Source: an uncultured archaeon (GTDB taxonomy: Archaea; Aenigmatarchaeota; Aenigmatarchaeia; CG10238-14; SCSR01). Taken from it: a stretch of 18,721 nt of DNA. This document shows positions 1,269 to 18,721 of the stretch, one piece after another; the stretch's first letter is position 1, and each line of letters starts with the position of its first letter. The stretch spans positions 1 to 18,721 of the forward strand of contig CAZRMN010000016.1 of the NCBI GenBank assembly GCA_964601215.1, given 5' to 3'. The translations under genes were made by a program, and so were the position numbers. Under the pieces are notes generated by a model, which worked only from the letters and a program-made list of their open reading frames with translations, was not told the origin of the DNA and searched no databases.

Positions 1269-2204
1269 GTGCCTCAAGAATTTCATGTTGAAGTAAGGGA
1301 AACCCCTGTTCAAACTGGTAGTTCTAGTATTAAAGCCTTATCTTTTATTATCGGTCTAATAGTTTTTCTTTTGTTTGCCCTTCTTTCCTATTTATTCTTT
1401 AAAATTGGAAGTCCTTTTCTTGGAATTTTCTTCGGTTTTCTAGCTTTAGTTGGAGGACCTCTTGCAGGCTCTTCAGTAAGGATGAATAACGAATGGGAAG
1501 AAGCAATAATACTAAGATTAGGTAAATACTTGAAAACAGTAGGACCTGGTGTTTTTTTCAGATGGCCTTTTATAGATACTGTTATCACAAGAGATTTGAG
1601 AATTAGGGCAATTGACATTCCAAGACAAGAAGCAATAACAAAGGATAACATTTCTGTTGGTGTTGATGCAGTAGTTTTTCTTAGAGTTAAAGATACGAAA
1701 AAAAGTGTTGTTAACATTCAGAACTATATTGATGCAGTAAGTAAGTATGCTCAAACAACTTTAAGGAATGTTATAGGTCAAAAAGACTTGGACGAGCTTT
1801 TAGAAAAAAGAGAAGAAATTGCAACAGCAATAAAATCTATAGTTGATGAGGAAGCAGATAAGTGGGGTATAGACATAACAGGAATAGAGCTTCAAGATAT
1901 TGAATTGCCAGGAAACATGAAAAGAGTAATGGCAAGACAGGCTGAAGCTGAAAGAGAAAAGAGGGCAGTTATAATTAAATCCGAAGGAGAGGTAATTGCA
2001 GCTCAAAACCTTAAGAAAGCTGCAGACATTCTCATGCAAAGTAAAAAACAAGCAGCTATGAGGCTAAGAGAATTAGCAACACTTTCAGATATAAGCTACG
2101 ATCAAAGCAATACGATAGTTTTTTATCCAACTCATTTAGGTTCAGAAGTTTTGTTAGCTGGTACAGCACTTTCTAAGCCGTTAAAATACAAAAAAGAAAA
2201 ATAA
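1269..2204 (+). CDS. SPFH/band-7 (stomatin/prohibitin-like) membrane protein
   Basis: A hydrophobic N-terminus (LSFIIGLIVFLLFALLSYLFF ... GIFFGFLALVGGPLAG) is followed by a typical SPFH core (EEAIILRLGKY..VGPGVFFRWPFIDTV...) and a C-terminal coiled-coil (ARQAEAEREKRAVIIKSEGE). The tool's start at 1044 overlaps the convergent Zn-ribbon gene. The first in-frame plausible start after that gene is GTG 1269, with no clear SD. The internal ATG at 1482 would delete the membrane hairpin. Confidence 0.75.
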   Translation: MPQEFHVEVRETPVQTGSSSIKALSFIIGLIVFLLFALLSYLFFKIGSPFLGIFFGFLALVGGPLAGSSVRMNNEWEEAIILRLGKYLKTVGPGVFFRWPFIDTVITRDLRIRAIDIPRQEAITKDNISVGVDAVVFLRVKDTKKSVVNIQNYIDAVSKYAQTTLRNVIGQKDLDELLEKREEIATAIKSIVDEEADKWGIDITGIELQDIELPGNMKRVMARQAEAEREKRAVIIKSEGEVIAAQNLKKAADILMQSKKQAAMRLRELATLSDISYDQSNTIVFYPTHLGSEVLLAGTALSKPLKYKKEK

Positions 2205-4330: not shown

Positions 4331-5058
4331 AGTTTTAAAAAGTTTAAAGCATCTTCTAGCATAAAAATATTGTTAAAAAGAATGAAAACTTCTTTTACTT
4401 TTTTCAAGTTTTCAATTTTCTTTTTTAGCTTGATCAAATCCTTTTTTGTATACTTATACTTGTACATCTGCTTACCAGGAGGAGAGCCATGCAGCCTAAA
4501 ATAAGCAATTCGTTTAGAAGAAAACCATAAGGGTTTGGAAGCAAAAGGGTCTACGCAAGAAATCAAATCAAACTTTTTGCAAATATTCTTAAAACCTTCT
4601 TCACTCCATCTTCTAAGCTCTAAAGCTATAGAAACTTTATCCCTTTTAATTTTCGAGAAAAACTTTTCAGCATTTCTTATGTTTTCCTCATTTTCCTTAA
4701 AACTTGCTGGAAGTTGAATTAAACAAACTCTAGCTTTAAGTATCTTACAAATTTCTAAAGTTTTTTCCCAAAACTCAAAAACTTCTCGAGTAGGTTTTAG
4801 AAACCCAACCTTTCCCTTAAGTTTTTCTAAATCCTTTATTCCACTCCTTCTCCAAGTTGGACTCGAGGTTGGATGAGAAATTCCTTGAAAGGCCTTAACA
4901 CAAAACTCAAAATTTTCTGGAGCTTGCTCACGCCATTTTTGAACAGTTTTTAATTGAGGCAGCCTGTAAAAAGTACTTTGAATTTCAACTAAAGAAAACT
5001 TTTGGAAGTATTTCTTCATTCCTCCAGGAAAGCCACAACAACCAACACGAATTTCCAT
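4318..5058 (-). CDS. DUF72 (UPF0759) family protein
   Basis: The tool's start at 5106 is a TTG. The first ATG is at 5058 and gives MEIRVGCCGFPG..., which matches the DUF72 N-terminal signature (MxIxxGxxGW-like). The rest of the protein is consistent with DUF72 length and composition. Confidence 0.75.
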   Translation of the reverse strand: MEIRVGCCGFPGGMKKYFQKFSLVEIQSTFYRLPQLKTVQKWREQAPENFEFCVKAFQGISHPTSSPTWRRSGIKDLEKLKGKVGFLKPTREVFEFWEKTLEICKILKARVCLIQLPASFKENEENIRNAEKFFSKIKRDKVSIALELRRWSEEGFKNICKKFDLISCVDPFASKPLWFSSKRIAYFRLHGSPPGKQMYKYKYTKKDLIKLKKKIENLKKVKEVFILFNNIFMLEDALNFLKLLRK

Positions 5059-5080
5059 ATTTCTCACAAGTTTTATTTTT

Positions 5081-5560
5081 TTAAACAAGTAAATGAATAT
5101 TTCCAATTCTTACTCTTTCTAATCCTTCTTCCTTAGCTATTTTTAAACAACTCTCTGCAAATTTCCTTGTTGTTAAGGGTAAATCCTTCATTTCAAAACA
5201 AGGATAAAAAGCAAGCAAAGAATAAGGTATACTCGAGTCCAAGCTTGCTATAAACCTACTTATTTCCCTTACCTCTTCCTCGCTCACATAACCAGGAATT
5301 AGGAGTGTGCTTGCTATTAGAAAAGGAACTTCCCTTCTTTTTTTATGCAATTTTACCAATTTTTCAAAATTCTCGTAGCTTTTCTCGTTTGAAACTCCTG
5401 TTAAAGCTTTGTTCAAACGCGAACCTTTAGGAAACTTTAAATCAAACTTAATACAACCACCAGTTTTAAAAGAATTAGTTGATATAGATGAATTAATTCC
5501 AATAGCAGTGGAAAAAGAAATAGGGACTTTAAAATTCCCAAAAATAAAAAAGCTAAGGCT
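5081..5560 (-). pseudogene. 3' remnant (C-terminal ~55%) of a PflA-like radical-SAM activating enzyme gene
   Basis: Hand-translating the frame upstream of the tool's TTG at 5416 shows it stays open to a TAA at 5561-5563, with no ATG. The segment GINSSISTNSF...FDLKFPKG...ALTGVSN...LLIPGY...YSLLAFYPCFEM aligns with the C-terminal half of the E. coli PflA pattern (GIHTCLDTNGF...LDLKQMND...LVGVSN...VVPGW...ELLPYHELG). The CxxxCxxC-bearing N-terminal half is absent. The remnant abuts the 3' end of the HPF-like gene. Confidence 0.55.
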
Positions 5561-5864
5561 TTAAACTCCTTTTAGGTTTCATCTTTTCAAATTTTTTGCT
5601 TATCATTTTTTCCAGTTTTTCTAAAAGTAAAGATAAGACAGAAGGAATATCCCATCCACTGGCTTTAGCAGTGAACAAAACATCTGAAGCTATAAGTTTT
5701 GCATGCATAGAGTATTTTTTTCTTCCTTCTGGACTATAAGTTTTCACATCCAACTTAAAACTTGAAATTTTCCACCTTTCTCCAAATTTTTCTAGGAATT
5801 TTTGGATTTCCTCTTGAATTTCAAGTTTTTCGGGTAAATGAGCATGAGAAATTTCTATTTGCAT
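5553..5864 (-). CDS. HPF/RaiA-like (Ribosomal_S30AE family) small protein
   Basis: The protein is 103 aa. MQIEISHAHLPEKLEIQEEIQKFLEKF ... DVLFTAKASGWDIPSVLSLLLEKLEKMISKKFEK parallels E. coli YfiA/HPF ([27 protein letters not shown] ... [29 protein letters not shown]). The ATG at 5862-5864 directly abuts the TGA of the upstream gene (TGAATG). Confidence 0.5.
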   Translation of the reverse strand: MQIEISHAHLPEKLEIQEEIQKFLEKFGERWKISSFKLDVKTYSPEGRKKYSMHAKLIASDVLFTAKASGWDIPSVLSLLLEKLEKMISKKFEKMKPKRSLKP

Positions 5865-6806
5865 TCAACCACTTTTTGCTATTAATGCACGCTCTTTAAC
5901 GAGCTTATTTTTCCATTTTTCTTTTAATCTTTCCCATTCATCCTCTTTCTTTGCTTTTTCTTTAATTTTTATTTCCTTTTGGCCAATTTTTTCCAATCTT
6001 TTATTTATCTCCTTCTTTAAATTTTCAACATATTCTTTTTCAACAAACTTGTTCATCTTTAGGCTTATTTCATCCAACATTTTAACTATATCCGTAGTCA
6101 ATTCATCTATTTTATTTATTTGCTCTTTCTGTCTTTCAATTTCATTCAATTTTTCACTCAATTCAGAAAAAATTAGTTCAACTTTAGCAGCTATTTTTTC
6201 AGTGTAAGCTTTTGCTTCTTCTATTTTTGAAATTTTCATTCCAATTTTTTCAGAAGTTTTCAATAAATTTTCTATACTTTTAACTTTTTCCATAATATTT
6301 AAGAACTCTTTAACTTCCCTTCTCAATTCATGAATCATTTCTTCAAGTTTTTCTATGTTTGCTTTAATTTCTTCTATTTCAGAATCTCTTTTTAAGAACT
6401 GTTTTTTAATTTTTTCTGGTTGTAGCTCAGAAACAGTTTCAAGAACCATTTCCATGTTTTTTTCAACTTTACTAAGGAACTTTTCTTTTTCAAGAATCAT
6501 AGACCTTAATTCTCCAATATTTTCAGATAAGTGACTTATTCTTTCATCAATTCCCTTTTTAAAATCTTCCAACATTTCTAATTTTCCATCAATCTTTTCA
6601 ATCCTAAGAAGAAGGTTTGGAAGGCTCATCTCCTTTGCCTCTCTTGTTGAAAAACTGGTAGGTTCGATTTCATCTTCTACCTCTCTTTCAGGAATTTCTT
6701 CAATCACTCCATACTTTTCTTTTAATTCTTTCTCTCTTTTTTTAATTTCTTCTTCTTTAATCGGTTCAATTAGCCTTTCCGTAAGTTCTATCTCATTTTT
6801 TGCCAT
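5865..6806 (-). CDS. K/E-rich coiled-coil protein (hypothetical)
   Basis: Almost the whole protein is heptad-like E/K/I/L repeats. Two ATGs are possible, at 6821 and 6806. The 6806 ATG is preceded by GGTGAAGGT (SD-like), so I prefer it. The gene overlaps the 3' end of the giant gene by 14 bp (29 bp with the other ATG), which suggests translational coupling. Confidence 0.6.
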   Translation of the reverse strand: MAKNEIELTERLIEPIKEEEIKKREKELKEKYGVIEEIPEREVEDEIEPTSFSTREAKEMSLPNLLLRIEKIDGKLEMLEDFKKGIDERISHLSENIGELRSMILEKEKFLSKVEKNMEMVLETVSELQPEKIKKQFLKRDSEIEEIKANIEKLEEMIHELRREVKEFLNIMEKVKSIENLLKTSEKIGMKISKIEEAKAYTEKIAAKVELIFSELSEKLNEIERQKEQINKIDELTTDIVKMLDEISLKMNKFVEKEYVENLKKEINKRLEKIGQKEIKIKEKAKKEDEWERLKEKWKNKLVKERALIAKSG

Positions 6807-9800
6807 ACTTACCTTCACCATACTTTGTTATCCAAAAATCAACGATTTTTTTCTTTAGTGAAGTTATATATATTTCAGCCATCCTAAACCTCCCTTGTTT
6901 TAATTTATCTTTCGCTAATTTTAATTCTGTTTTTAAATCAAATACATCTTTCCCTTCTCTTTCAAGCTTTTCTATTTCCATTTCTATTTCTTCGATGGCT
7001 TTACTAAACTCTCTATAAGTCTTAAGCTCCTTTTCAGGTATTTTATGAGGCATGTGTAATGGAGGTCTGAAAGAAACAAACCAAGGTATTCCATCATTAT
7101 ACTTTGGATTTTGCATCATCCCTACACCTACTTCTTCTCTTGCAACTCTTTTTGCATACTCTAGCCCATATTTCTTCTCAACTCTCACTAAATCTCCAAG
7201 GCCTTTTGTATGCATTTGAATTTCAGTTAATACATTTCCTTTTATTGCTTCCTTAAAGTCACTCAAAACTTGAGAGATCATTATTAGCCCAATCCCCCAT
7301 TTTCTGAATTCTCTGCAAGCCTTTTCTAAGACTATGTAACCTCCTTTTCCTCCGTATTTTTCTAATAAACGATGAACTTCATCAAAAACTATTACAAGCT
7401 TTAAACTACTCGACTCTTCCCAACCTTGTGCAAAAATTGTATTTATTATATTTGTAACCGCTTCATCATATTCTCCTGGTTTAAGCTTGTTTAAAGTGAA
7501 AATAGTAATTTCTCCTGGGTTCATGTACTTTTTGAAATCAATTTCAACTTTTGGAGTAGTAACTTCGTATATCATTCCTTTGAATGGTCTAGTATCATCC
7601 TTAGAAAGTCCAAACTTTTTATAGTATTTCAAAACTTTAGGGTCTCTACATGGCTTTACAAATCCTGTCCATTGAGCAGTTGGGTCAAAAACTATTACTG
7701 GTATTTTTCTATCTAACAATTCTTCTACAAATATGCTTCCAGTTACAGATTTTCCTGAACCAGTAGCACCAGCAATCAATACATGAGTTGTTAAATCATC
7801 CATTTTAAACGTTGCTTTCACGTTAGTTTCTGCAATTTTACCAAGCCATATTTTTCCTTTTGGAAGTTTTCTCATGTTTACTGGGAAAATGTACCTGGCT
7901 TTTGCTGCTTTCCATTTCAAATACCTCTTTCTTCCATACCATACAGAAAATGCGGAAATAACTGCTAAGCTTAAAACAGAAATCATTTGAATTCTTTGAG
8001 GAGTCCAGAATGGTTGAACTATTTCAAACAAATCCGTAGAACTTTTTTTCTTTCCATCATAAGTTGCTTCGACAACAAATAAATAAGAACCTAGTGAAAC
8101 GTTTGAAGGAATTAGTATCTCTTTTATGTACGATTCATAAGAAGATTCCATGGGTTTAATCTCACTACTCGAATAAATTACCTTTTCCGTTTCGGATTCT
8201 TTAATTAAATAAGTTATGTTAGCATCGTATCTTTTCTTTACTCCTAGGTTATAGAGCATAATTCTAAATCTTGCTATTTTTTCTGGGTTGATTTGTTTTG
8301 TTAATGCTTCAACCATTATGTCCAGTTCTATTAAACCTTTGAGTGAAACAGTTAAAGTTACTGGTAGAGTTTGTGTTTTTCCACTACTTCTTACTATTAT
8401 TTCACCAGTATAAGCTCCTGGTTCTATAGTCGGAGGAGCAAAAGCGTTTATTATTATCATACCCTCTTTTCCGCCTTGAATATTAATCGAATTCTTTTCA
8501 AGTTTAATTAGTTCTACTATAGAACCACTCAAAGAAATCGAAAAGTTAAGGTTTTTGTTCGCTTCATTTGAAATCCATAAAGCGAAATTTTTACTCTCAT
8601 TAACATTTATTTGTGCATCGGTTAAATTTGTCCTTAAGCTAAACTTGATTTCTTCTTCAGCTGGTGGAGTAGTAGGCAAACCACCTCCTGGTCCAGACGG
8701 TTGGGTTGTAGTTCCTCCGCTTGGCTGTCCACAATCCTCAGGACAGTTTAACTCAGATTCCCCAATACCACACTTTCCATTTCCACAAATTTCAATTTCA
8801 GCAGCTGCATAAACAGAAGTTGTTTTCTGGGTAGTAGACGCTAAATGTTTAGAAAAGTCTACTGTAGTATTAACTTCGCTCCAACCAGAAATACAGGATG
8901 GATATGTCCAATTAGAACACTTATAGATTTTTATACCAGGCTCATACCATATTTTTCCTTCCTGAAAATCCTCGGTATAATTAAAGGTTATAGTTAAATT
9001 TGAAAAGACAGCATTTGTTTTAATTTCAACAGCAGAAATCTTATATCTCTCAGGATTTGGCAAATCAATTATTGCTGTAGGTATTATTGACAAGTTTATT
9101 GGATTTGTCACATTTGAATTTGGATCACCAAACTGGAGTTCTGCAGTAGCTGTTGTATTAAAGTCAGATAGTTTAATGGAACTAGTTCCTATTTTTGCTA
9201 GGAAGTCATATGCTCTTTTATGCAAAGTAAAATTGTAAAAACCAGAATCATTCAAAAATGAATGAATTATGTAGTTTCTATTCGGTCTGTAAAGAGTGAA
9301 ATCTATTGGAAAGCTAGCATTCAAATACATTTGTATTGGTTCATAAACTTCAAACCAATTCACTGTTTGATTTAACCAACCAGAAGTATCGTTCGCGTAT
9401 AGTACATAATCATAATCTCCTTTTTTTGTCATATTTTCTAGAATAACTTTCCATGTTGTCCTAAGTGTGTCTGAAGTTAAATTCTGCAAATAATAAACAT
9501 AAGAAGAAGAATTTGGATAAGTTATATTGACCCAAACTTTATCAACCCCATACCAATCTGTTACATTTGCCTCTATTGTTACATTACCTCCTAAAGTTAC
9601 AGAGTTAGCATGTAAATAAGTTATAAAAGGAGGTGTTGTATCATATTCTCTAATTATTATTTCGACAGAACTTTCGTTCAAAGAAGTGTTGTAATGTCTG
9701 TAAGTACTTATGTCTGCATGGGTTATGTTACATTTTATAGTATGCAAACCTTCTGGTACTGTTGTATTGTCGCTTATGTTCCAAGTATAGCTTACGTATC

Positions 9801-12800
9801 CTATAGATTTTAAGCTAGTATTTGTTTCACCTTCATACAAAAGTATTTCATTATTATTGTACTTATCCCAGATTTTTACTGGATATTGGTCTATTCCTGA
9901 GGTTAGATTTGCATCCTCTACATAGCATACTATAGTAAGAGTTCTTTGATTTTCTGTTCTATTCACTTTTTGGTTATTGAGCGGGTAAGTTACATTAACT
10001 CTAGACCAACCGTATATCATTACTGAAACATTCTTTTCTGCTAGCTCATAAAATTCACCCTTTGCTTCAGCTTTTATTCTTAGTACTCCAGGAGCGCAAT
10101 ATCCAACAGTATAAGTTGTATTATCTCCATTTCTACTCATGCTACAAGTTGTCCATCCTTCATCAGTCGTGCTATTTCCTATCCAAGTCACATTATAAGT
10201 ATAGGATGGCAAACCACAGGAATCCTTGAGAGTAGAGTTTAATTGGATTGTCTCGCCAATATAATAAATTGAGCCTTCAACGGGTGAAATTATAGTTAAA
10301 TTCAAATAATCTTTTAAGGTTGTATTAATTGTACTGTTAATTATATTCAAATAATAGTATGGATTAACATTTCCAGATAGAGTCACATTAATTAGGTAAT
10401 AACCCAAGGCATCTGAACAATTAGTTTCCCAAGTTAAATTACAATACCCACTACTATTCGTTTGAGTCTTATTCTTTAAATTCCTATTTATATACCAGGT
10501 ACAATTGTAACCTTCAATAGGAACTGTTAACCCAAATTCATCTTGGATTCTTGCAGTAATGTTTGAAATTCCTCTGGTTAAGTTTTGAGTAGTAGTAAGG
10601 TTGATGTTAAGCTTTCCATAAATTTTTACGCTAAAGTTTTCTGAAATATTCGTTTGGTAGTAAGGATCTTGGTAAGTTCCTGCTTTCCACCATCTTTGTC
10701 CAGGTTTGTATGAAGCGTTAGGAGAAAATGTGTAATTACAAAAACCGGTTTGATTACTTATTGCATCACTCCCCCAATCCCAATGAGTTTCATTTAGAGT
10801 TATCCAAAAAGTGCAACTGGCATTTGAAACAGCTTCATTAAAATCAGTATCGTTTATTTGAATCATAAATAAAACAGAATCTGTTCTGTTTACTTCTGTA
10901 TTATTTCCCAAAACATAAATTATAGATACATTGTGCTTTGTAACGTTTGGACCATACTGCACACTACTATTTTGCCAATCATGGTATTGAATGTTTTGTG
11001 AGAAATTAAAATCTGCAAATTCAAATTTGAACAAATTATTTCCAGTCCAGCTTTTATTCGTAGTAAAATTAAAAGTAACTATTTTATTGCTTGTAGCATT
11101 TTTCTCATCTATAAGTTGCCAAACGTTTAACCTTGTAATGTTTACCCATAGTTTAATTGTTATGTTGTTGTTTTCTGCATCACTAACATTTACACTTATG
11201 TTAAACTCGCTTCCCCAAATTCCCTGAGCTGGGGTAATATTAATGTCAGAAAGTGTTGGAAGATTGTTGCTCGAACCACTTGCTTCATACAATACAGAAG
11301 AAGAATGTGGTTGTTTCCATACGAATAAGTCTTCCACATTATTTCCATTCGTGTCTTGTTTGCAAACCCAAAATGTATCACTACCAATTTGAATTGGGTA
11401 AAAAGTTGGATTGTTTGAATTACAATCTGTTGAAGGAGTGGAGGGGGTAATATCATAAAAAGTTCCGTTGTTAAACCAGTCAACTTTAAGTTTTGGTTCT
11501 GCTATAACTATAGAATCGTTTATCGTAGTGTTTGCAATTATGTCATAAAAAATTTCAGGAGTATTGTTCCAGATTGAAATATTCTTTTTCCAGAAGCCCT
11601 CGCTTACTATTGGTTGGGATTCATTTATGATAATAGGGACTGCAGAGCTCATTGAATCGTCCCATAAAGTATCATAAAATAAAGGTCCAGAACTTGGGAT
11701 AATATGGTTAAGAGCTGTTATATTACAAACTTTTTTTCCATTTAATGTAGTTACAGGATAAGAAGTTCCATTAAAGTCACATTTTGTTGCTGTATCACTT
11801 ACCCTAATATAATTAATCCTTATGTCCACTGCAGGATTATTTTTATAAGTTATATTTTTAATCTGGTTTCCAACAGATTCATTTGCTCTTACATTTCTTA
11901 TTCTAGACCAAGCACTCTTAATTTCATAAGTTATTAAATTAGAGATGTTATACTCATAGGTTATGTTTATTGAAGTAATTCTTAAATCACCTCCATAATC
12001 TGAATGAAAAACTAAAGGAATATCACAATTTCCAGTGGAATCTGCTTGACAGCTTGTCAAATAATTTTGGAATGCAGAATTGTTTGAAACAGAAGAACTT
12101 GACCTGAATTTTCCTTGATATAACCACTCTAAGTTCCCATCCCCTCCTATATCTAAGCTTACGTTTGTTGGATAATATTCAAAATTTAGGATGAAAAGGG
12201 TATAATTTGCAGGAATATTTGTTCCAGCCACAACTTCACTACCAGGGTCAGAAGTTAGATTTCCAGCTCCAACACCTCGAACATCGTTTTCTGTCAAATA
12301 ACTCCAAATAAGATAACCAGAAGAATTTAAAACATAAACTCTATCATCTAAACTACCAGCTATTATTTCGCCACCCACATCAGAAGATGTTATGTCGCTT
12401 ATTAAAACAGTGCCAACTTGTCCTTGAGTATCATAACTCCATAGAACATTACCATCGGAATCGAGCAAAAATACTGTTCCATTATTTCCAGCAACAGCAA
12501 TTTCTTCATACTCTTTACTCAAATCAGCATCTCCAACATCAACATCATTTATTTCCGTTCCTATGTTTGTATTCCACTTAAGGTTTCCAGAGGAGTTGAA
12601 AACATAAACTTTATAATCACTACCACCTGCTGCTATTTCATTTCCTTCATCAGATGAAAGGTTTCCTATAGCCACTCCTTTAAAAGAGCTACTCCCAGAA
12701 TAATTCCACAATTGTTGACCAGAGGAATCAAAAAGATAGACTCTATTATTGCTTGAAGCAACAGCAATTTCTTCATACTCTTTACTCAAATCAGCATCTC

Positions 12801-13383
12801 CAACATCAACATCATTTATCGTATTTCCTATACTCAAATTCCAGACTTGTTTTCCTGAGGAGTTTAATAAATATAAAAAACCACTAGAATCTCCACCCAC
12901 AACTTCCCTTCCTTCATGAGATGAAAGGTTTCCTATAGCTATACCATAAACATCTCCAGTTGTTGAAAAATTCCAAATACTGTTTCCTATACTATTAAGT
13001 AGTTGAATATAAGAAGGACCACTAGTTCCTATGGCAATTTCATCCCAATCGTTTGAAAAGATTACATTGCCTACACTTAAACTATAAATTTGCCGGTAAG
13101 TTGTTGAGGATACAGGCCTCATAACTCCAGTTAGGTTTATACTAGAGCTTAAAATCGTAGAATTCTTGGGAATTCTAATCCATCTTGTTTGATTTTCTAC
13201 ACCACTAAATATTATATCTTCAGTTTTGTTCGTGTTGTTTAAAGAATCTTGAGTAAAGTTAAAAACTGGGTTATCTAACTCTAAAAGAAAGGTTAATTGG
13301 GAAGAAGAAGAGAGCGCAAAACTATAGATAAAAAAAGCTAAAAAAAATGAGAAAATTACTAAAATTTTAAATTTCTTTCGCAT
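6793..13383 (-). CDS. giant (2196 aa) surface protein: signal peptide, beta-propeller repeats, multiple Ig-like domains, Cys/PT stalk, single TM, cytoplasmic FtsK/HerA-superfamily ATPase
   Basis: ATG at 13383. The N-terminus is a signal peptide (MRKKFKILVIFSFFLAFFIYSFALS). The extracellular region carries repeated ~45-aa blades (..AIGNLSSxEG.E...GG.D...Y..NSSG...WN / IG..INDVDVGDADLSKEYEEIAVA..N..V.L.DS.G..LW.Y). These are followed by ~1300 aa of beta-rich, N-x-S/T-dense sequence. Then comes CGNGKCGIGESELNCPEDCGQPSGGTTTQPSGPGGGLPTTPP, two more beta domains and a TM helix (ISVLSLAVISAFSVWY, ~7940-8000). The C-terminal ~380 aa has Walker A (HVLIAGATGSGKSV, 7747-7770), FDPT, Walker B (LVIVFDEVH, ~7369-7395) and RKWGIGLIMISQ. 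These match FtsK/HerA (DUF87)-type ATPases. The protein ends with a coiled-coil tail. Confidence 0.85.
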   Translation of the reverse strand: MRKKFKILVIFSFFLAFFIYSFALSSSSQLTFLLELDNPVFNFTQDSLNNTNKTEDIIFSGVENQTRWIRIPKNSTILSSSINLTGVMRPVSSTTYRQIYSLSVGNVIFSNDWDEIAIGTSGPSYIQLLNSIGNSIWNFSTTGDVYGIAIGNLSSHEGREVVGGDSSGFLYLLNSSGKQVWNLSIGNTINDVDVGDADLSKEYEEIAVASSNNRVYLFDSSGQQLWNYSGSSSFKGVAIGNLSSDEGNEIAAGGSDYKVYVFNSSGNLKWNTNIGTEINDVDVGDADLSKEYEEIAVAGNNGTVFLLDSDGNVLWSYDTQGQVGTVLISDITSSDVGGEIIAGSLDDRVYVLNSSGYLIWSYLTENDVRGVGAGNLTSDPGSEVVAGTNIPANYTLFILNFEYYPTNVSLDIGGDGNLEWLYQGKFRSSSSVSNNSAFQNYLTSCQADSTGNCDIPLVFHSDYGGDLRITSINITYEYNISNLITYEIKSAWSRIRNVRANESVGNQIKNITYKNNPAVDIRINYIRVSDTATKCDFNGTSYPVTTLNGKKVCNITALNHIIPSSGPLFYDTLWDDSMSSAVPIIINESQPIVSEGFWKKNISIWNNTPEIFYDIIANTTINDSIVIAEPKLKVDWFNNGTFYDITPSTPSTDCNSNNPTFYPIQIGSDTFWVCKQDTNGNNVEDLFVWKQPHSSSVLYEASGSSNNLPTLSDINITPAQGIWGSEFNISVNVSDAENNNITIKLWVNITRLNVWQLIDEKNATSNKIVTFNFTTNKSWTGNNLFKFEFADFNFSQNIQYHDWQNSSVQYGPNVTKHNVSIIYVLGNNTEVNRTDSVLFMIQINDTDFNEAVSNASCTFWITLNETHWDWGSDAISNQTGFCNYTFSPNASYKPGQRWWKAGTYQDPYYQTNISENFSVKIYGKLNINLTTTQNLTRGISNITARIQDEFGLTVPIEGYNCTWYINRNLKNKTQTNSSGYCNLTWETNCSDALGYYLINVTLSGNVNPYYYLNIINSTINTTLKDYLNLTIISPVEGSIYYIGETIQLNSTLKDSCGLPSYTYNVTWIGNSTTDEGWTTCSMSRNGDNTTYTVGYCAPGVLRIKAEAKGEFYELAEKNVSVMIYGWSRVNVTYPLNNQKVNRTENQRTLTIVCYVEDANLTSGIDQYPVKIWDKYNNNEILLYEGETNTSLKSIGYVSYTWNISDNTTVPEGLHTIKCNITHADISTYRHYNTSLNESSVEIIIREYDTTPPFITYLHANSVTLGGNVTIEANVTDWYGVDKVWVNITYPNSSSYVYYLQNLTSDTLRTTWKVILENMTKKGDYDYVLYANDTSGWLNQTVNWFEVYEPIQMYLNASFPIDFTLYRPNRNYIIHSFLNDSGFYNFTLHKRAYDFLAKIGTSSIKLSDFNTTATAELQFGDPNSNVTNPINLSIIPTAIIDLPNPERYKISAVEIKTNAVFSNLTITFNYTEDFQEGKIWYEPGIKIYKCSNWTYPSCISGWSEVNTTVDFSKHLASTTQKTTSVYAAAEIEICGNGKCGIGESELNCPEDCGQPSGGTTTQPSGPGGGLPTTPPAEEEIKFSLRTNLTDAQINVNESKNFALWISNEANKNLNFSISLSGSIVELIKLEKNSINIQGGKEGMIIINAFAPPTIEPGAYTGEIIVRSSGKTQTLPVTLTVSLKGLIELDIMVEALTKQINPEKIARFRIMLYNLGVKKRYDANITYLIKESETEKVIYSSSEIKPMESSYESYIKEILIPSNVSLGSYLFVVEATYDGKKKSSTDLFEIVQPFWTPQRIQMISVLSLAVISAFSVWYGRKRYLKWKAAKARYIFPVNMRKLPKGKIWLGKIAETNVKATFKMDDLTTHVLIAGATGSGKSVTGSIFVEELLDRKIPVIVFDPTAQWTGFVKPCRDPKVLKYYKKFGLSKDDTRPFKGMIYEVTTPKVEIDFKKYMNPGEITIFTLNKLKPGEYDEAVTNIINTIFAQGWEESSSLKLVIVFDEVHRLLEKYGGKGGYIVLEKACREFRKWGIGLIMISQVLSDFKEAIKGNVLTEIQMHTKGLGDLVRVEKKYGLEYAKRVAREEVGVGMMQNPKYNDGIPWFVSFRPPLHMPHKIPEKELKTYREFSKAIEEIEMEIEKLEREGKDVFDLKTELKLAKDKLKQGRFRMAEIYITSLKKKIVDFWITKYGEGKYGKK
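6796..7935 (-). other. cytoplasmic FtsK/HerA-like P-loop ATPase domain of the giant protein
   Basis: I verified the Walker A GATGSGKS codons by hand at 7747-7770. The Walker B DEVH is at about 7369-7395. An RKWGIGLIMISQ motif, analogous to the HerA R-K-y-G-l-g-l-i-l-i-t-Q or FtsK ATQRP segment, follows. Confidence 0.7.
12491..12552. repeat. 62-bp exact direct repeat, copy 1 (intragenic, beta-propeller blade region)
   Basis: The string gcaacagcaatttcttcatactctttactcaaatcagcatctccaacatcaacatcatttat also occurs at 12758-12819. Both copies encode INDVDVGDADLSKEYEEIAVA on the minus strand. Confidence 0.85.
12758..12819. repeat. 62-bp exact direct repeat, copy 2
   Basis: It is identical to 12491-12552, and the flanks diverge immediately on both sides. 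Confidence 0.85.
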
Positions 13384-15453: not shown

Positions 15454-16056
15454 ATGAAAAAGGCGATATTTTTAATCTTATTGTTTTCTTTTATTTTTCT
15501 TCAAACAGGAAAAAGTATAAGAGAAACTCCAACTTTGCCCATGAATCTTTCTGTAATAAGTTTTTATTCTATAGAAATAAGTGATAAGTTAGCTGAAGGA
15601 ATTCTATTTACCAATTTAACTGGTTCTGAACTAAACGTTCAATATCCTTTGCTCGCAGGTTCTTTTGATAACAATGCAACTTTTAATTACAATAAAACTA
15701 ATCAAAAAACAGAGTATTGGGTTTATGTTTCTGGTAATATGTTAGTAGATATTTGCCAAGGAGCGAAATATAATTTATGCTCTAACTTAACTTGTGTTGG
15801 TCCAGGAAATTATGAAATTTATATTAGCAACGTAACTTGGAACAGTTCAAAAATAAACGATGCACAAAATCCTTCTCTTTTAAACTCGATTCCAATGGTT
15901 CTAGGCTTTGATAATAACAATAAAATAACTCAAATCCAGCCAGGAGAATACGTTTACTTGAGGTACTGGCTAGACGTCCCTCCAAATTTTCCTCCTTATA
16001 ATTATAGTACGATTTATCAAGTTCAAGCAGTACCTTCTGGTGGTACATGTGTTTAA
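15454..16056 (+). CDS. secreted Cys-containing glycoprotein, family 'A' paralog 1
   Basis: It has an N-terminal signal peptide (MKKAIFLILLFSFIFLQTG). The motifs ETPTLPMN...ILFTNLTG..NVQYP..NNATFNYN..KTEYWVYV..DICQ..NLCSNLTCVGPGNYEIYISNVTW..YVYLRYWLDVPP are shared with the ORFs at 17360-18040 and 18272-window edge. Confidence 0.7.
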   Translation: MKKAIFLILLFSFIFLQTGKSIRETPTLPMNLSVISFYSIEISDKLAEGILFTNLTGSELNVQYPLLAGSFDNNATFNYNKTNQKTEYWVYVSGNMLVDICQGAKYNLCSNLTCVGPGNYEIYISNVTWNSSKINDAQNPSLLNSIPMVLGFDNNNKITQIQPGEYVYLRYWLDVPPNFPPYNYSTIYQVQAVPSGGTCV

Positions 16057-16639
16057 AAAATTAATTTGTATAGCATTAGTATTAGCTTTAATTAAGCCTA
16101 CTTATGCAACAAGAGGTCTAGGCATAGGACCTGCAAAAATGAACATTTCTGTTAGTCCAGGAGAAGAACACTTATTTTATCTAATTCTTTTTAATCCAGG
16201 TGACGCAGATGAAAACGTGAGTTTAAAAGCTTACTGTTTGAACTGTCTAAGAGATTATAAGATTTTTGGGTTTTATGTGGGTAAGGTAAACTATACAGAA
16301 GATTTCTTAAGATTTCCAAAAACAATAAAAGTTGAAAAAAATACTACTCATCTGGAAGGAAAATTTGTAGAAATTAACATAAAAGTCCCAAAATTTGTTA
16401 GATCTCAAATTATTCTTGGAAATAAAACTATTTCATCCTATATTCTGGCATCGAATTTAAAACAGCTTGACTTCAGAATTGTTGCTACTGCTGGCGAAAA
16501 AACAAAAATTTCTGTAGTAAGCGATTTAAAAGTAAAAATAAAGGAAGAAACGAATTATTTTCCAGTTTTTTTAATAATTTTCTTTCTAGTTTTAATTTTT
16601 TTGATAAAAAAAACTACTTTGATTTTTTCTTTCTTTTAA
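16049..16639 (+). CDS. signal-peptide / C-terminal TM-anchored protein, family 'B' paralog 1
   Basis: The tool's start is GTG 16040. GTG 16049 gives MFKKLICIALVLALIKPTYA|TRGLGIGP and is preceded by GGTGG 7 nt upstream. It overlaps the A1 stop by 8 bp. The core GIGPAKMNISVSPG...NPGDADENVSLKAYCLNC...GKV aligns with the paralog at 16614-17318. The C-terminus has a hydrophobic anchor. Confidence 0.65.
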   Translation: MFKKLICIALVLALIKPTYATRGLGIGPAKMNISVSPGEEHLFYLILFNPGDADENVSLKAYCLNCLRDYKIFGFYVGKVNYTEDFLRFPKTIKVEKNTTHLEGKFVEINIKVPKFVRSQIILGNKTISSYILASNLKQLDFRIVATAGEKTKISVVSDLKVKIKEETNYFPVFLIIFFLVLIFLIKKTTLIFSFF

Positions 16640-17318
16640 AAAATTTGTAAATTCTTCTGAAACCAATTTTCCAAAGAATGAAAAGAATTACACAAATTAT
16701 TATAAGAATGATTATTATTAAGCTCCCGAGAGGTATCCCTTTTATATGCATGTTCAAGTCAGCACCTACTGCTGGAGTTGCTCCCATCGCTCCAAAAGTA
16801 GACCAAACAGCTGAAATAGTTATTCCACCTTTTATTTCCTTTTCATCTATTAGTAAAGTGTAATAAGGAATGGAAAATTCACCAGTATAACTTGGATTAA
16901 TTCCTCTAACCAAAAAGTTTATTTCCTCTGGAGTGGAAATCACAAGTTCTTTTTTAACCCAAATACTTGGAGTAATGTGTACTGTTATTGGAATAGCAGC
17001 TTCTGGACCAGTATGGTTTGGTACATAAACTTCTTCTGGGTCAAAAGTGAAAAATTGTCTATAGTCTTCCCTTACTTTACCTATACGCCAGCCAAAAAAA
17101 TAAGCATCACTTTCGCAATTCTCGCATTCAAAAGTAACTTTTGCTTTAATGTCATAATCTCCTGGGTTGTAAACTATTAGAGTAGCAGAGTAAGGATTTC
17201 CTATGCTTGTTCTAATGTTAAGCCTAGTAGGACCCATTCCAATTCCTACACCTGCAAAAACAGAAGGAATAGAAATAAGAAAAAAGAATACAATAAAAAC
17301 AAATAACGCTCTTTTCAT
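16614..17318 (-). CDS. signal-peptide / C-terminal TM-anchored protein, family 'B' paralog 2
   Basis: ATG at 17318. MKRALFVFIVFFFLISIPSVFA|GVGIGMGPTRLNIRTSIG...NPGDYDIKAKVTFECENC...GKV is followed by a C-terminal TM helix and a basic tail (RRIYKFFKRKKKSK). Its 3' end overlaps paralog 1's 3' end by 26 bp in convergent orientation. Confidence 0.7.
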   Translation of the reverse strand: MKRALFVFIVFFFLISIPSVFAGVGIGMGPTRLNIRTSIGNPYSATLIVYNPGDYDIKAKVTFECENCESDAYFFGWRIGKVREDYRQFFTFDPEEVYVPNHTGPEAAIPITVHITPSIWVKKELVISTPEEINFLVRGINPSYTGEFSIPYYTLLIDEKEIKGGITISAVWSTFGAMGATPAVGADLNMHIKGIPLGSLIIIILIIICVILFILWKIGFRRIYKFFKRKKKSK

Positions 17319-17359
17319 GTTTTCACTAAATTACTGTATTTTTTTAATATTTAAAAGTT

Positions 17360-18040
17360 TTAACAGTCGCATTCGCCGCAATCCAATGAAGCTTCTACTA
17401 TTTTGAATCTGTAAGTTGTATTGTATGTACCTGAAGTTATTGTATCTGGATAAGGATTAAGCCAATACCTTAAGTAAATATAAGCATCCTTGTATTCGGG
17501 CATGCTTGCATTTACTACTTGATAAACGTCTGTTCCTGGAGGTGGAAAACTGTATTGAGGCGTGTCGTCCACACCAGTTGCTGAAGTAGCGTTTGCCCAT
17601 CTTACACCCTCGCTATCTGGTTCGCTTGGAACATAAATGTACATATAATCTACATTTTTTTGGCAGTCTCCTCCCGAACATGTCAAGTTATTGCAAACAC
17701 AGTGACAAACTTTTGTCGGTGCTGTATTTGTATCAAAGGTATGTACCCAATACATCGTTCCATAGTTTGTATCATCTCCATAATTTTCTGTTGCATTGTT
17801 CCAATAATCCATTTGAGTTATTGGATATTGGATGTGCCTAGTTGTTGCGTTTGTGAAAAATATTCCTAAGGAAAGATTTCCTGAAAGTTCAAAGCCAATT
17901 ACTTGCTGAATGCTTGCATTCATTGGAACTGTCTGGGTTTCTGTTGCAAATATGTTTGGCATGCTTACTATTGCAACTATTACTAAAGCTGCTAAGAGAA
18001 CTATGAATGCTATTGAGGTTATCCCTCTCCTCAATTCCAT
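17360..18040 (-). CDS. secreted Cys-rich glycoprotein, family 'A' paralog 2
   Basis: The tool's start at 18064 is a TTG. The first ATG at 18040 gives MELRRGITSIAFIVLLAALVIVAIVSMPNIFA|TETQTVPMN.... The mature region aligns with A1 (ET.T.PMN.S...GI.FTN.T...QYP...NNAT.NY...YW...C.C.NLTC.GG...YIYLRYWL). The C-terminus has a CGECDC motif. A tttatatt box lies ~25-31 nt upstream of the ATG, so the transcript is possibly leaderless. Confidence 0.7.
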   Translation of the reverse strand: MELRRGITSIAFIVLLAALVIVAIVSMPNIFATETQTVPMNASIQQVIGFELSGNLSLGIFFTNATTRHIQYPITQMDYWNNATENYGDDTNYGTMYWVHTFDTNTAPTKVCHCVCNNLTCSGGDCQKNVDYMYIYVPSEPDSEGVRWANATSATGVDDTPQYSFPPPGTDVYQVVNASMPEYKDAYIYLRYWLNPYPDTITSGTYNTTYRFKIVEASLDCGECDC

Positions 18041-18071
18041 ATATAAAATTTGAATTCTGTCCAATATAAAT

Positions 18072-18263
18072 TTATTTTTTCAAATAGCAAAGAGAAACTA
18101 CCCCAATTCTCCTTTGTTCTACTTTATTGCTTTTAACTAAAGCAAAAATGTATTTGGAAACTGTGTTTCTGTGCAGGTTTGTCTTTCGAGAAATGTCCAT
18201 TATAGTTAAACCTTCTGGATGCTTAGAAAGTACTCTAATTATCTTTTCTTCTGTTTCATTCAT
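18072..18263 (-). CDS. small winged-helix (wHTH) DNA-binding protein, putative local transcription regulator
   Basis: The tool's start at 18278 is a TTG that overlaps the upstream gene. The first ATG at 18263 is preceded by AGGA. The region IIRVLSKHPEGLTIMDISRKTNLHRNTVSKYIFALVKSNKV is a classic HTH plus wing. The protein is ~63 aa. Confidence 0.65.
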   Translation of the reverse strand: MNETEEKIIRVLSKHPEGLTIMDISRKTNLHRNTVSKYIFALVKSNKVEQRRIGVVSLCYLKK

Positions 18264-18271
18264 TTTATCCT

Positions 18272-18721
18272 TTAGCAAGGTTCTTCCTCTCCCACGGCTT
18301 TAAAGACTACAGTAGAGTTGTACTTTCCAGAAGGTACTCCAGGAGGTGCGTAGAACCAATACCTTATGTAAATGGTTTGATCGACTGGTAAACTGTATGC
18401 AACTCTGTTACCAGTGGAATAACTTAAAGTCAAATTATTAACAGTAGTAAAAGCTGGATAGGTCAAGTTGTTGTAAGTTGAGTTGCTCCAGGTTACATTA
18501 CCAATATAAATTTCATAATTTCCGCAAGTTTCTCCTGGTGTGCAAATCATGTTTGCATTGGCTTTCTGGCATATATCTATAGGAGCAGTTCCATTGTTAG
18601 TAATCCAATATTCTGTTTTATTGTCGGAAGCATTGTAATTCCACGTAGCGTTATTATACCAACCTATTCTTACATTATACTGAGTATTAGTTTGAGCTCC
18701 TGTTTCATTCGTGAAGAATAT
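18272..18721 (-). CDS. secreted Cys-containing glycoprotein, family 'A' paralog 3 (partial; 5' end off-window)
   Basis: Hand translation shows the frame is open from the window edge. The segment IFFTNETGAQTNTQYNVRIGWYNNATWNYNASDNKTEYWITNNG..DICQKANANMICTPGETCGNYEIYIGNVTW...TIYIRYWFYAPPGVPSG..EEEPC* aligns along its whole length with A1 and A2. The ATG at 18550 chosen by the tool is internal. Confidence 0.65.
   Translation of the reverse strand: MFFTNETGAQTNTQYNVRIGWYNNATWNYNASDNKTEYWITNNGTAPIDICQKANANMICTPGETCGNYEIYIGNVTWSNSTYNNLTYPAFTTVNNLTLSYSTGNRVAYSLPVDQTIYIRYWFYAPPGVPSGKYNSTVVFKAVGEEEPC

Follow-up and report, generated by a model that had tools for sequence, protein, structure and literature searches.

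A giant surface protein with a predicted HerA-clade ATPase from an uncultured Aenigmatarchaeon: a compact and very probable member of the SPEARE family

On an 18,721-nucleotide stretch of DNA from an uncultured archaeon of the Aenigmatarchaeota (GenBank assembly GCA_964601215.1, contig CAZRMN010000016.1, hereafter the window), one gene on the minus strand at 6793..13383 encodes a giant protein in which an adhesin-type ectodomain is joined to an ATPase through a single transmembrane (TM) helix. In family identity and architecture, this protein is very probably the Aenigmatarchaeota (DPANN) version of the published SPEARE, or giant surface protein, family. Reading from the N- to the C-terminus, it consists of a signal peptide, a seven-bladed beta-propeller, a string of sequon-rich beta-sandwiches, a Cys knot with a linker, two immunoglobulin (Ig)-like domains, the TM helix, the ATPase and a helical tail. 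Among the explanations considered for this architecture, the one that we favour overall and regard as likely is a SPEARE-type adhesin-ATPase that would act as a ring motor at a site of contact; the function of the protein is argued below by analogy with its relatives.

The open reading frame (ORF) is a real gene. It is a single unbroken frame of 2196 codons, and complete orthologous ORFs of 2063-2210 amino acids (aa) are present in six Aenigmatarchaeota metagenome-assembled genomes (MAGs). The closest orthologue, with 2184 aa, lies on an 802-kb Aenigmatarchaeota contig and is colinear with 62% identity over 2183 aa. Across about 1750-1830 aa of the ectodomain, the identity to the orthologues is 57-58% for two of them and 42-44% for the four others. 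In the ATPase part, the nearest relatives in a scan of GTDB representative genomes are hot-spring MAGs of Candidatus (Ca.) Aenigmatarchaeota with 80% identity, in line with the DPANN origin guessed in an earlier note, which had been made from the letters of the window alone. That note had also worried that the ORF could be mis-joined, for example by a frameshift near 8000. Since the colinear orthologue on the 802-kb contig and the other complete orthologues have similar lengths, and since the frame is unbroken and hundreds of fused family members are known from the HMMER scan described below, a mis-join is excluded; the reading as two genes fused by a frameshift or a chimeric assembly, for which no supporting point was found, has a negligible probability. 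The GC content across the window is about 28-37%, and no tRNAs were found in it.

The Kyte-Doolittle scan of the whole protein found only two hydrophobic segments, aa 4-28 and aa 1798-1816. The former belongs to a Sec-type signal peptide, and the latter is the TM helix, which appears as a long helix (model residues 236-269) in the AlphaFold2 model of aa 1560-2196. There are 102 N-x-S/T sequons in aa 1-1810, compared with 34 expected from the composition, and none in aa 1830-2196. In addition, only one K/R residue is found in the 15 residues before the TM helix, compared with seven in the 15 residues after it. Based on the sequon distribution and the charge flanking the helix, the ectodomain is placed outside and the ATPase in the cytoplasm. 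The single helix with the ATPase inside, the order of the parts from the signal peptide to the coiled coil and the sequence motifs listed in the earlier note (the Cys knot, Walker A, FDPT, Walker B and REFRKWG/ISQ, in this order) are thus all as it had described them.

For the propeller, for which six to eight blades had been proposed, seven blades were counted. Each has about 45 aa with the pattern (E)(I/V)(A/V)xG...(Y/F)x(L/F)(N/D)xxGxxxW, and the double-blade period is 89 aa. The Pfam matches are well above the cut-offs (PQQ_2, 4.7e-14 and 53 bits with a cut-off of 27.6; Beta-prop_CGLA, 1.7e-16 and 61 bits with a cut-off of 26.8), and the phmmer matches in the PDB are the designed 'Cake' propellers and archaeal cell-surface propellers. 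The sequon-rich part that follows constitutes about 1100 aa of beta-sandwich domains, and 79 of the 102 sequons fall in the 100-aa bins spanning aa 401-1500. An AlphaFold2 model of aa 400-1559, a check that the earlier note had proposed for the ectodomain, is all-beta with confident blocks; since its mean confidence score (pLDDT) is only 62, it was used for the fold class and not for the arrangement of the domains. The best Foldseek matches of this model are the strings of macroglobulin (MG) domains in alpha2-macroglobulin, complement C3/C5 and CD109, and no enzyme fold was found in aa 401-1530 from the model and these matches. Weak Pfam matches in the ectodomain are Big_7 and DUF4625. No laminin-G, serine protease or toxin-like region was found by Pfam at E <= 0.01 or among the top Foldseek matches of the aa 400-1559 model, and no nuclease or protease family or fold was found in the giant protein by Pfam, NCBIfam or Foldseek of the modelled aa 400-2196.

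The part next to the membrane is the conserved core of the family. The AlphaFold2 model of aa 1560-2196, made with a 46-sequence alignment, has a pLDDT of 88.4 and contains two beta-sandwiches, the long helix, an alpha/beta ATPase and a helical tail. A Cys-knot module of the form CGxxxCxxxExxxxCxxDC also precedes this core in the homologues P0010, P0013, P0037 and P0044 (P and L numbers are our handles for homologous proteins and related loci, respectively) and in a giant protein of a Woesearchaeon. It was also observed that the membrane-proximal module (8002-8643 for the two Ig-like domains and PFWT, with the TM helix at 7936-7992) resembles the WxL-interacting proteins (DUF916/DUF3324) of Enterococcus, which likewise have two Ig-like domains followed by a C-terminal TM anchor. 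The fold also matches, and the profile of the giant-protein family hits them with 4.7e-4 over about 175 aa. However, the similarity is weak, and those proteins are bacterial, have no ATPase and bind WxL proteins. The two Ig-like domains with their anchor may be a surface-anchoring unit common to Firmicutes and archaea.

The ATPase is, by sequence and model, a member of the HerA clade of the FtsK-HerA superfamily, as HerA proteins are the best matches by Pfam, by the profile search against PDB sequences and by Foldseek. In Pfam, DUF87 (the HerA central domain, 9.3e-12) and HerA_C (2.2e-6) are above their cut-offs, whereas ResIII (1.3e-4, 22.3 bits with a cut-off of 22.5), FtsK_SpoIIIE and AAA_10 are all below theirs. 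The best NCBIfam matches are CedD (3e-13) and HerA_Thermprot (5e-11), both of which are partial and far under the family cut-offs. In the profile search against PDB sequences, seven HerA-clade entries lead (1.8e-9 to 1.6e-5), followed by IcmO/DotL (2.8e-3), FtsK (0.05) and TrwB (1.3), and all the ATPase matches among the top 50 of Foldseek are HerA. No VirB4 chain was found at E <= 10 in the former search or among the top 50 of the latter. The earlier note had called an FtsK/HerA-superfamily ATPase followed by a coiled coil and had proposed profile and structure searches as the check; these searches support the ATPase call, and the coiled coil agrees with the helices after the ATPase in the model (residues 558-634) and with a conserved tail motif.

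The features that define the superfamily, namely a P-loop core with Walker A, an hhhhDE Walker B, and a conserved Arg-rich motif with [ST]Q after strand 4, are all found. The 46 family members aligned do not vary at GxTGxGKS, at the Walker B DE, at REFRKWG or at SQ, and the tail motif is also kept family-wide. The invariance of the catalytic motifs points to an active enzyme under selection. It should be noted that the HAS barrel of HerA is absent from the AlphaFold2 model, and that a TM helix about 30 aa before the ATPase core is present instead.

The kinship with SPEARE proteins is supported by both homology and layout. The C-terminal module has 42% identity over 592 aa (E 4e-172) to the end of SVXNc_0300, a protein of 9409 aa in Ca. 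Nanohalococcus occultus, 52% to SVXNc_0299 (P0090), the short neighbour of SVXNc_0300, and 50% to AQV86_02330 of Nanopetramus SG9 (P0099). By its locus tag, the last of these is one of the genes that Hamm et al. (2019, PMC6642349) list as SPEARE. Its database length of 625 aa differs from the length in the legend of that paper. SPEARE proteins were defined there as mostly extracytoplasmic, with a TM segment near the C-terminus, a conserved cytoplasmic domain read as a type III restriction enzyme, and at least one laminin-G domain plus serine protease and toxin-like regions, and relatives were reported in Woesearchaeota, Aenigmarchaeota, Micrarchaeota and Altiarchaeales (PMC6642349). SVXNc_0300 was described as having, after a Sec signal peptide and one Ig-like domain, two PQQ-like propellers, some 75 Ig-like domains and a TM segment, followed by a cytosolic VirB4/TraG-like ATPase and a terminal coiled coil; its family was equated with SPEARE, and the laminin-G, protease and toxin-like regions were disputed as family-defining (Reva et al., 2023, PMC10266531). 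In the giant protein, an extracytoplasmic bulk, one C-terminal TM helix, a homologous P-loop domain, adhesion modules and a terminal coiled coil are all found, and a common set of Pfam profiles, including ResIII, matches it and the SVXNc family members; laminin-G, protease and toxin-like regions were not found by the searches given above. The earlier note knew of no characterised protein with this architecture. In fact, the layout had already been published, both as SPEARE (PMC6642349) and as an adhesin with a VirB4/TraG-like ATPase (PMC10266531). No newer mechanistic work on the family was found in our literature searches.

The first homologue search revealed that the family is large in DPANN, its members having ATPases with 50-76% identity. 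The long ectodomain was considered unusual for a time, since the top 120 matches of a word-indexed search were all of at most 720 aa; this idea was overturned by an HMMER scan and by the loci from GTDB. The HMMER scan of 1.84 billion representative proteins identified 1194 relatives, of which 362 (clusters at 50% identity) have E <= 1e-30. Among the best 150 of these clusters, the lengths run from 353 to 7878 aa (median, 1442); 107 clusters reach 1000 aa or more, and 62 reach 2000 aa or more. Most of these 150 end in the ATPase or have it close to their C-terminus, and a more divergent subset has several hundred residues beyond it. Consequently, the fusion of an ectodomain with this ATPase is common. 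Homologues with the same fusion in archaeal metagenomes, which the earlier note had proposed to look for, are therefore numerous, the six full-length orthologues from MAGs included.

In both a Woesearchaeon and Ca. Nanohalococcus occultus, a short gene with ectodomain, TM helix and ATPase (699 and 623 aa, respectively) follows the giant gene (15808 and 9409 aa) with an overlap of 4 nucleotides (nt). The 3' ends of both giants encode a sequon-rich beta domain with Y(K/R)C...C, a G/P-rich linker with or without the Cys knot and two Ig-like domains, and then (P/S)FWT, the TM helix, (A/E)RYVxP, the ATPase and a coiled coil, as in the protein of the window. When the two loci (L001, 1-10100, for the Woesearchaeon and L002, 1-9872, for Ca. 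Nanohalococcus occultus) were read side by side, the giant and its short paralogue had similar C-terminal modules within each, and this similarity suggests a recent duplication or gene conversion within each genome. Outside DPANN, an open frame of more than 3600 aa, running off the fetched flank, was observed at 50-13479 of L019 on a 1.9-Mb contig of Ca. Hydrothermarchaeum profundi JdFR-18. It ends in the family ATPase and is followed by an ATPase-less gene of 271 aa and then by the coiled-coil partner gene described below. Therefore, the role of the family is not limited to DPANN symbiosis. Family matches also occur in bins named 'Heimdallarchaeota' and 'Bathyarchaeia' on 2-3-kb contigs, which may be mis-binned. 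Finally, P0217, P0224, P0252 and P0261 form a divergent branch with 45-49% identity in the ATPase, a different ectodomain and GPG-rich linkers. After the coiled coil, these proteins have C-terminal extensions of 350-700 aa, which consist of low-complexity sequence and a small helical domain that is repeated (...F..HV....N.FA.WI...). The idea that in these four proteins the coiled-coil partner is fused to the ATPase, as a Rosetta stone, was considered and rejected, the repeated domain being a different one.

The neighbouring genes were compared in 29 sequences, that is, the window and 28 related loci from the scan of GTDB representative genomes. ORF clustering yielded only two widely held families, the ATPase protein (29 of 29) and a coiled-coil protein, whose gene recurs in 24 of the 28 related loci besides the window, always downstream and on the same strand. 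Its taxa are Aenigmatarchaeota, Woesearchaeota, Nanohaloarchaeota, Pacearchaeota and Hydrothermarchaeum. By BLASTP, the copy in the window matches those of the Woesearchaeon (5e-34) and Nanohalococcus (4e-29), the alignments running for about 200 aa without a gap. Neither a TM segment nor a Pfam family was found in it, and its homologues are all named 'hypothetical'; no discussion of the gene was found in the available portions of PMC6642349 and PMC10266531. The overlap with the ATPase gene is 14-29 nt in the window and often 4 nt in the related loci, so the coupling of the two genes that the earlier note had claimed is borne out.

The same note had placed the giant gene at the head of an operon, which is probably not the case, because a gene for a 662-aa single-pass surface protein ends 33 nt upstream on the same strand, and this arrangement is conserved: the gene is directly upstream, on the same strand, in four orthologous loci (L010, L011, L012 and L014; 31-33% identity) and nearby in L003. 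The 662-aa protein matches MG2 (5e-8) and NPCBM_assoc (1.1e-6) in Pfam. In seven loci where the frame of the ATPase gene exceeds 3500 aa, a gene of 270-340 aa lies between the ATPase gene and the coiled-coil gene. In most of the seven, the product of this gene has a helical ecto domain after a signal peptide and one Ig-like domain, and then a TM helix and a cytoplasmic tail. The tails of several copies of these ATPase-less accessory proteins end in the motif of the ATPase tail (E 5e-6 and 3e-4). In the accessory protein of L019 (271 aa), a signal peptide precedes two Ig-like domains, which are followed by PFWT and a TM helix, without the tail motif. The hhalign comparison of the 662-aa protein with the accessory proteins of about 300 aa in the giant loci (probability 68%, E 4.7e-5) is suggestive of the former being their counterpart. 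A single-pass accessory gene usually adjoins the giant gene. The spacers of 33 nt and 48 nt are AT-rich, and promoter reading by eye was uninformative. No NurA, Mre11 or Rad50 gene was found in the window or the 29 loci. The features of the window are listed in Table 1.

Table 1. Features of the giant gene and its neighbours in the window. Numbers in the second column are residues of the giant protein, unless a protein length is given.
Feature	Residues or length	Position	Strand	Basis or remark
Signal peptide, MRKKFKILVIFSFFLAFFIYSFALSSSS	1-28	13300..13383	-	hydrophobic segment; basic n-region before hydrophobic core
Seven-bladed PQQ/BamB-like beta-propeller	~105-400	12184..13071	-	Pfam, PDB phmmer, blade repeats
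Sequon-rich all-beta ectodomain, Ig/macroglobulin-type beta-sandwich string	401-1530	8794..12183	-	AlphaFold2, Foldseek, sequons
Cys knot CGNGKCGIGESELNCPEDC and P/T/G-rich linker	1533-1551 (Cys knot)	8650..8793	-	sequence, motif position
Two membrane-proximal Ig-like beta-sandwiches	1581-1788	8020..8643	-	core ectodomain conserved family-wide
PFWT motif	1791-1794	8002-8013	-	directly after the Ig-like pair
TM helix, N-out/C-in	1798-1816	7936..7992	-	hydropathy, AlphaFold2, flanking charge, sequons
Predicted HerA-clade P-loop ATPase	1845-2105	7069..7851	-	cytoplasmic
Walker A GATGSGKS	1872-1879	7747-7770	-	motif
FDPT	1899-1902		-	motif
Walker B VIVFDEVH (DE)	1997-2004	7372-7395	-	motif
REFRKWG...ISQ	2024-2038	7294-7314 (REFRKWG), 7270-7281 (ISQ sensor)	-	motif
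C-terminal helical/coiled-coil tail, ending in family motif ...DLKTELKLAKDKLKQGRFRMAEIYITSLKKKI	2117-2193	6805..7035	-	AlphaFold2, alignment
Coiled-coil partner gene, cytoplasmic product	318 aa	5865..6821	-	overlaps 3' end of ATPase gene
Single-pass surface protein: signal peptide, Ig/MG-like domains, helical ecto domain, C-terminal TM helix, short basic tail	662 aa	13417..15405	-	Pfam
HPF/RaiA-like gene	103 aa	5553..5864	-	Pfam Ribosomal_S30AE; abuts coiled-coil gene
Three Cys-/sequon-rich paralogues (o15454 type)		15454-16056, 17360-18064, 18272-18550		C-terminal Y(L/I)RYW...PP...Y(N)(S/T)T
Two paralogues: signal peptide, 'GxGIGP...NPGD' beta domain, C-terminal TM helix		16040-16639, 16614-17318		
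Winged helix-turn-helix regulator		18072-18278		

Farther upstream of the giant gene, a cluster of small surface-protein genes on both strands (15454-18550) is found in synteny with the giant gene at six loci of Aenigmatarchaeota, and further copies follow the coiled-coil gene in L010-L014. The first two proteins of the o15454 type have an N-terminal signal peptide or anchor, which the one of 92 aa does not. No Pfam or PDB match was found for these small secreted proteins.

On the other side, the HPF-like protein aligns end to end with Ribosomal_S30AE slightly below the cut-off (1.3e-4, 23.0 bits with a cut-off of 23.7). In its family, 15 of the 23 members match this profile, and the PDB profile matches are weak, colinear and nearly all HPF/YfiA. 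The 22 homologues all come from Aenigmatarchaeota or unnamed metagenomic sources. The earlier note had counted this gene as a member of the operon; it does adjoin the coiled-coil gene, yet it has no copy in any of the 28 related loci, so it is no conserved partner. The small genes that follow the coiled-coil gene in L001 and L002 were considered as its counterparts and rejected, as these genes and the HPF-like gene are unrelated to each other. To our knowledge, HPF-family proteins are not a usual archaeal feature, and the gene may be a lineage-specific acquisition. Between this gene and a DUF72 gene, and overlapping the latter, lies an ORF of 111 aa (5081-5416, minus strand) that matches only positions 204-287 of 349, in the C-terminal third, of the AmmeMemoRadiSam radical-SAM profile, and it is probably a gene remnant. 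In addition, the GC and AT skews of the plus strand are strongly negative at 5000-8000 of the window, with the GC skew down to -0.44. This stretch covers the coiled-coil gene together with the 3' portion of the ATPase gene, and the skew would fit purine-rich K/E codons on the coding strand and not a replication signal.

Then, what could such a protein do? Characterised members of the FtsK-HerA superfamily form rings, characterised members of the HerA clade act on DNA, and DPANN cells need external nucleotides. In the mechanism that we propose, the ectodomain would bind to a substrate or to the surface of another cell, and the ATPase would assemble as a ring under the membrane, as HerA, VirB4, FtsK and TrwB do. 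As the TM helix takes the position of the N-terminal barrel of HerA, the N-terminal face of the ring and its six TM helices would be turned towards the membrane. Below the ring, the tails of the ATPase and of the accessory proteins would dock on the coiled-coil partner, and ATP hydrolysis would move a polymer across or at the contact site. We lean slightly towards a ring motor docked to the coiled-coil partner. DNA as the moved polymer is a tentative choice, made by analogy, because CedB and CedD, which are membrane-anchored ATPases of the HerA clade, are required for DNA import in Sulfolobales, CedD being TM-anchored and HerA/VirB4-like (PMC11868833). More doubtful is a broader form of the proposal, in which the adhesin-ATPase, the coiled-coil protein and the single-pass accessory protein would constitute a three-part contact-dependent translocation machine of DPANN and some other archaea. 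Such a machine would move DNA or protein between cells with a HerA-type ring and single-pass helices, without the channel parts of type IV secretion systems (T4SS) or Ced.

Several points weigh against the ring motor at a contact site. No polytopic channel gene of the CedA, VirB6 or FtsK-N type is conserved nearby across the 29 loci, and a conduit made from six single helices would be hypothetical. The match to CedD spans the Walker-A region only, with 49 bits and a cut-off of 600. HerA rings in bacterial defence are scaffolds or activators and not transporters. The presence of the family on the 1.9-Mb Hydrothermarchaeum contig means that a symbiont-host interface is not its sole setting. The evidence on the family itself is the expression of the Nha. 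antarcticus protein, shown by proteomics (PMC6642349), and transport, oligomerisation and ATPase activity are predictions from sequence and models.

Because bacterial-defence HerA rings act as scaffolds or activators, a role other than transport is possible, and we consider it the foremost alternative, at a probability somewhat under that given to DNA as the polymer. Here the protein would be an adhesin whose ring and coiled coil cluster, anchor, exert tension or signal, that is, a scaffold or a contact sensor. In keeping with this, each subunit has a single TM helix and no channel gene is conserved in the loci, and the cytoplasmic coiled-coil partner, together with the tail motifs on the ATPase-less accessory proteins, suggests a scaffold. 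Defence rings of the HerA family that serve as platforms for partners are also among the PDB matches (8woc, 8xav and 8ziq). However, the catalytic residues strictly kept in the 46 members, in a family of 362 clusters at E <= 1e-30, speak for ATP turnover, which would suit mechanical work as well as transport, and CedB and CedD, the closest membrane-anchored relatives with a tested role, act in DNA import (PMC11868833).

The T4SS-like 'straw', in which the giant protein would belong to a T4SS-type apparatus and its VirB4/TraG-like ATPase would drive effectors into the host cell (Reva et al., 2023, PMC10266531), is unlikely. HerA, not VirB4, is the best match by every method. The VirB4 N-domain PF03135 is absent at E <= 0.01 in the giant protein, and with the current Pfam it was not recovered even at E <= 0.1 in SVXNc_0299, for which it had been claimed, nor in the C-terminus of SVXNc_0300, P0037 or P0099. 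The stretch of SVXNc_0299 reported as PF03135 is a signal peptide followed by an extracellular Ig-like domain. In addition, no VirB6-, VirB2/3- or VirB8-like genes are conserved in the 29 loci, and the fold of the ectodomain, beta-sandwiches in a string, is not one that forms tubes.

Still less probable is a motor for the assembly or export of a surface structure made of the small secreted proteins encoded at 15454-18550. Their synteny in the six Aenigmatarchaeota loci and their copies in L010-L014 would fit such a role. However, the link is confined to Aenigmatarchaeota, whereas the pair of ATPase and coiled-coil protein is far wider, and the signal peptides of the small proteins are of the ordinary kind, nothing recognisable as a pilin feature is present in them, and the Pfam and PDB searches gave no match. 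As for the original SPEARE reading, a type III restriction endonuclease that degrades imported DNA, joined to an ectodomain with a serine protease (Hamm et al., 2019, PMC6642349), we consider it very improbable: the ResIII matches (1.3e-4 here and 7e-7 in SVXNc_0299) speak for it, but ResIII covers only the helicase-type P-loop core and falls short of its cut-off here, DUF87/HerA scores far higher, no nuclease or protease was found by the searches above, and Reva et al. (2023, PMC10266531) conclude likewise.

The fused architecture is thus already known, and the giant protein adds a compact Aenigmatarchaeota member to it. DPANN archaea rely on other cells for their nucleotides, lipids and amino acids, material that has to pass from one partner to the other. 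Of the published candidates for the contact apparatus, the SPEARE family, to which these tiny genomes devote a sizeable share of their length, is the main one. A version of 2196 aa should pose far fewer difficulties in expression and structural work than those of 6000-15000 aa. The new points are that the motor is predicted to be of the HerA clade and not VirB4 or a restriction enzyme, that a dedicated coiled-coil partner is almost always linked, and that accessory single-pass proteins carry the same tail motif. Based on these partner genes, testable hypotheses on the function of the family could be formulated.

By its defining features, the giant protein is not HerA proper, VirB4, CedB/D or FtsK. 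HerA is the best profile and structure match, and the Walker A, DE, REGRKFG-type and SQ motifs align, but the giant protein has a TM helix and an ectodomain in place of the HAS barrel, has no NurA, Mre11 or Rad50 neighbours, and scores far under the cut-offs of the NCBIfam HerA models. For FtsK/SpoIIIE, neither a motor domain above the Pfam threshold nor a polytopic N-domain was found in it. With VirB4/TraG and VirD4/TrwB, it differs in the absence of PF03135 and of T4SS neighbours, and the profile E-values are much weaker or absent. CedB and CedD, the closest relatives with a tested role, which is DNA import (PMC11868833), are also anchored by an N-terminal TM segment and have a cytoplasmic HerA-clade ATPase. 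However, the match to CedD (NF053655) has 49.3 bits with a cut-off of 600 and covers positions 168-260 of 527 (93 aa), and the Ced proteins have a cytoplasmic VirB4-like N-domain, have no ectodomain and work with the polytopic CedA/CedE and the pilin CedA1 (PMC11868833); no CedA, CedA1, CedA2 or CedE partner genes were found in the window or the related loci. Compared with SVXNc_0300, the giant protein is far shorter, with 2196 aa and one propeller, and is without a laminin-G, protease or toxin-like region by Pfam. Its locus belongs to the Aenigmatarchaeota and not to a halophile, contains a single ATPase gene instead of a tandem of a giant and a short one, and has its accessory single-pass gene upstream. 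In common with SVXNc_0300 and SVXNc_0299, it has a homologous coiled-coil gene downstream and the same order of parts, that is, signal peptide, PQQ-like propeller, Ig repeats, linker, two Ig-like domains, PFWT, TM helix, ATPase and coiled-coil tail.

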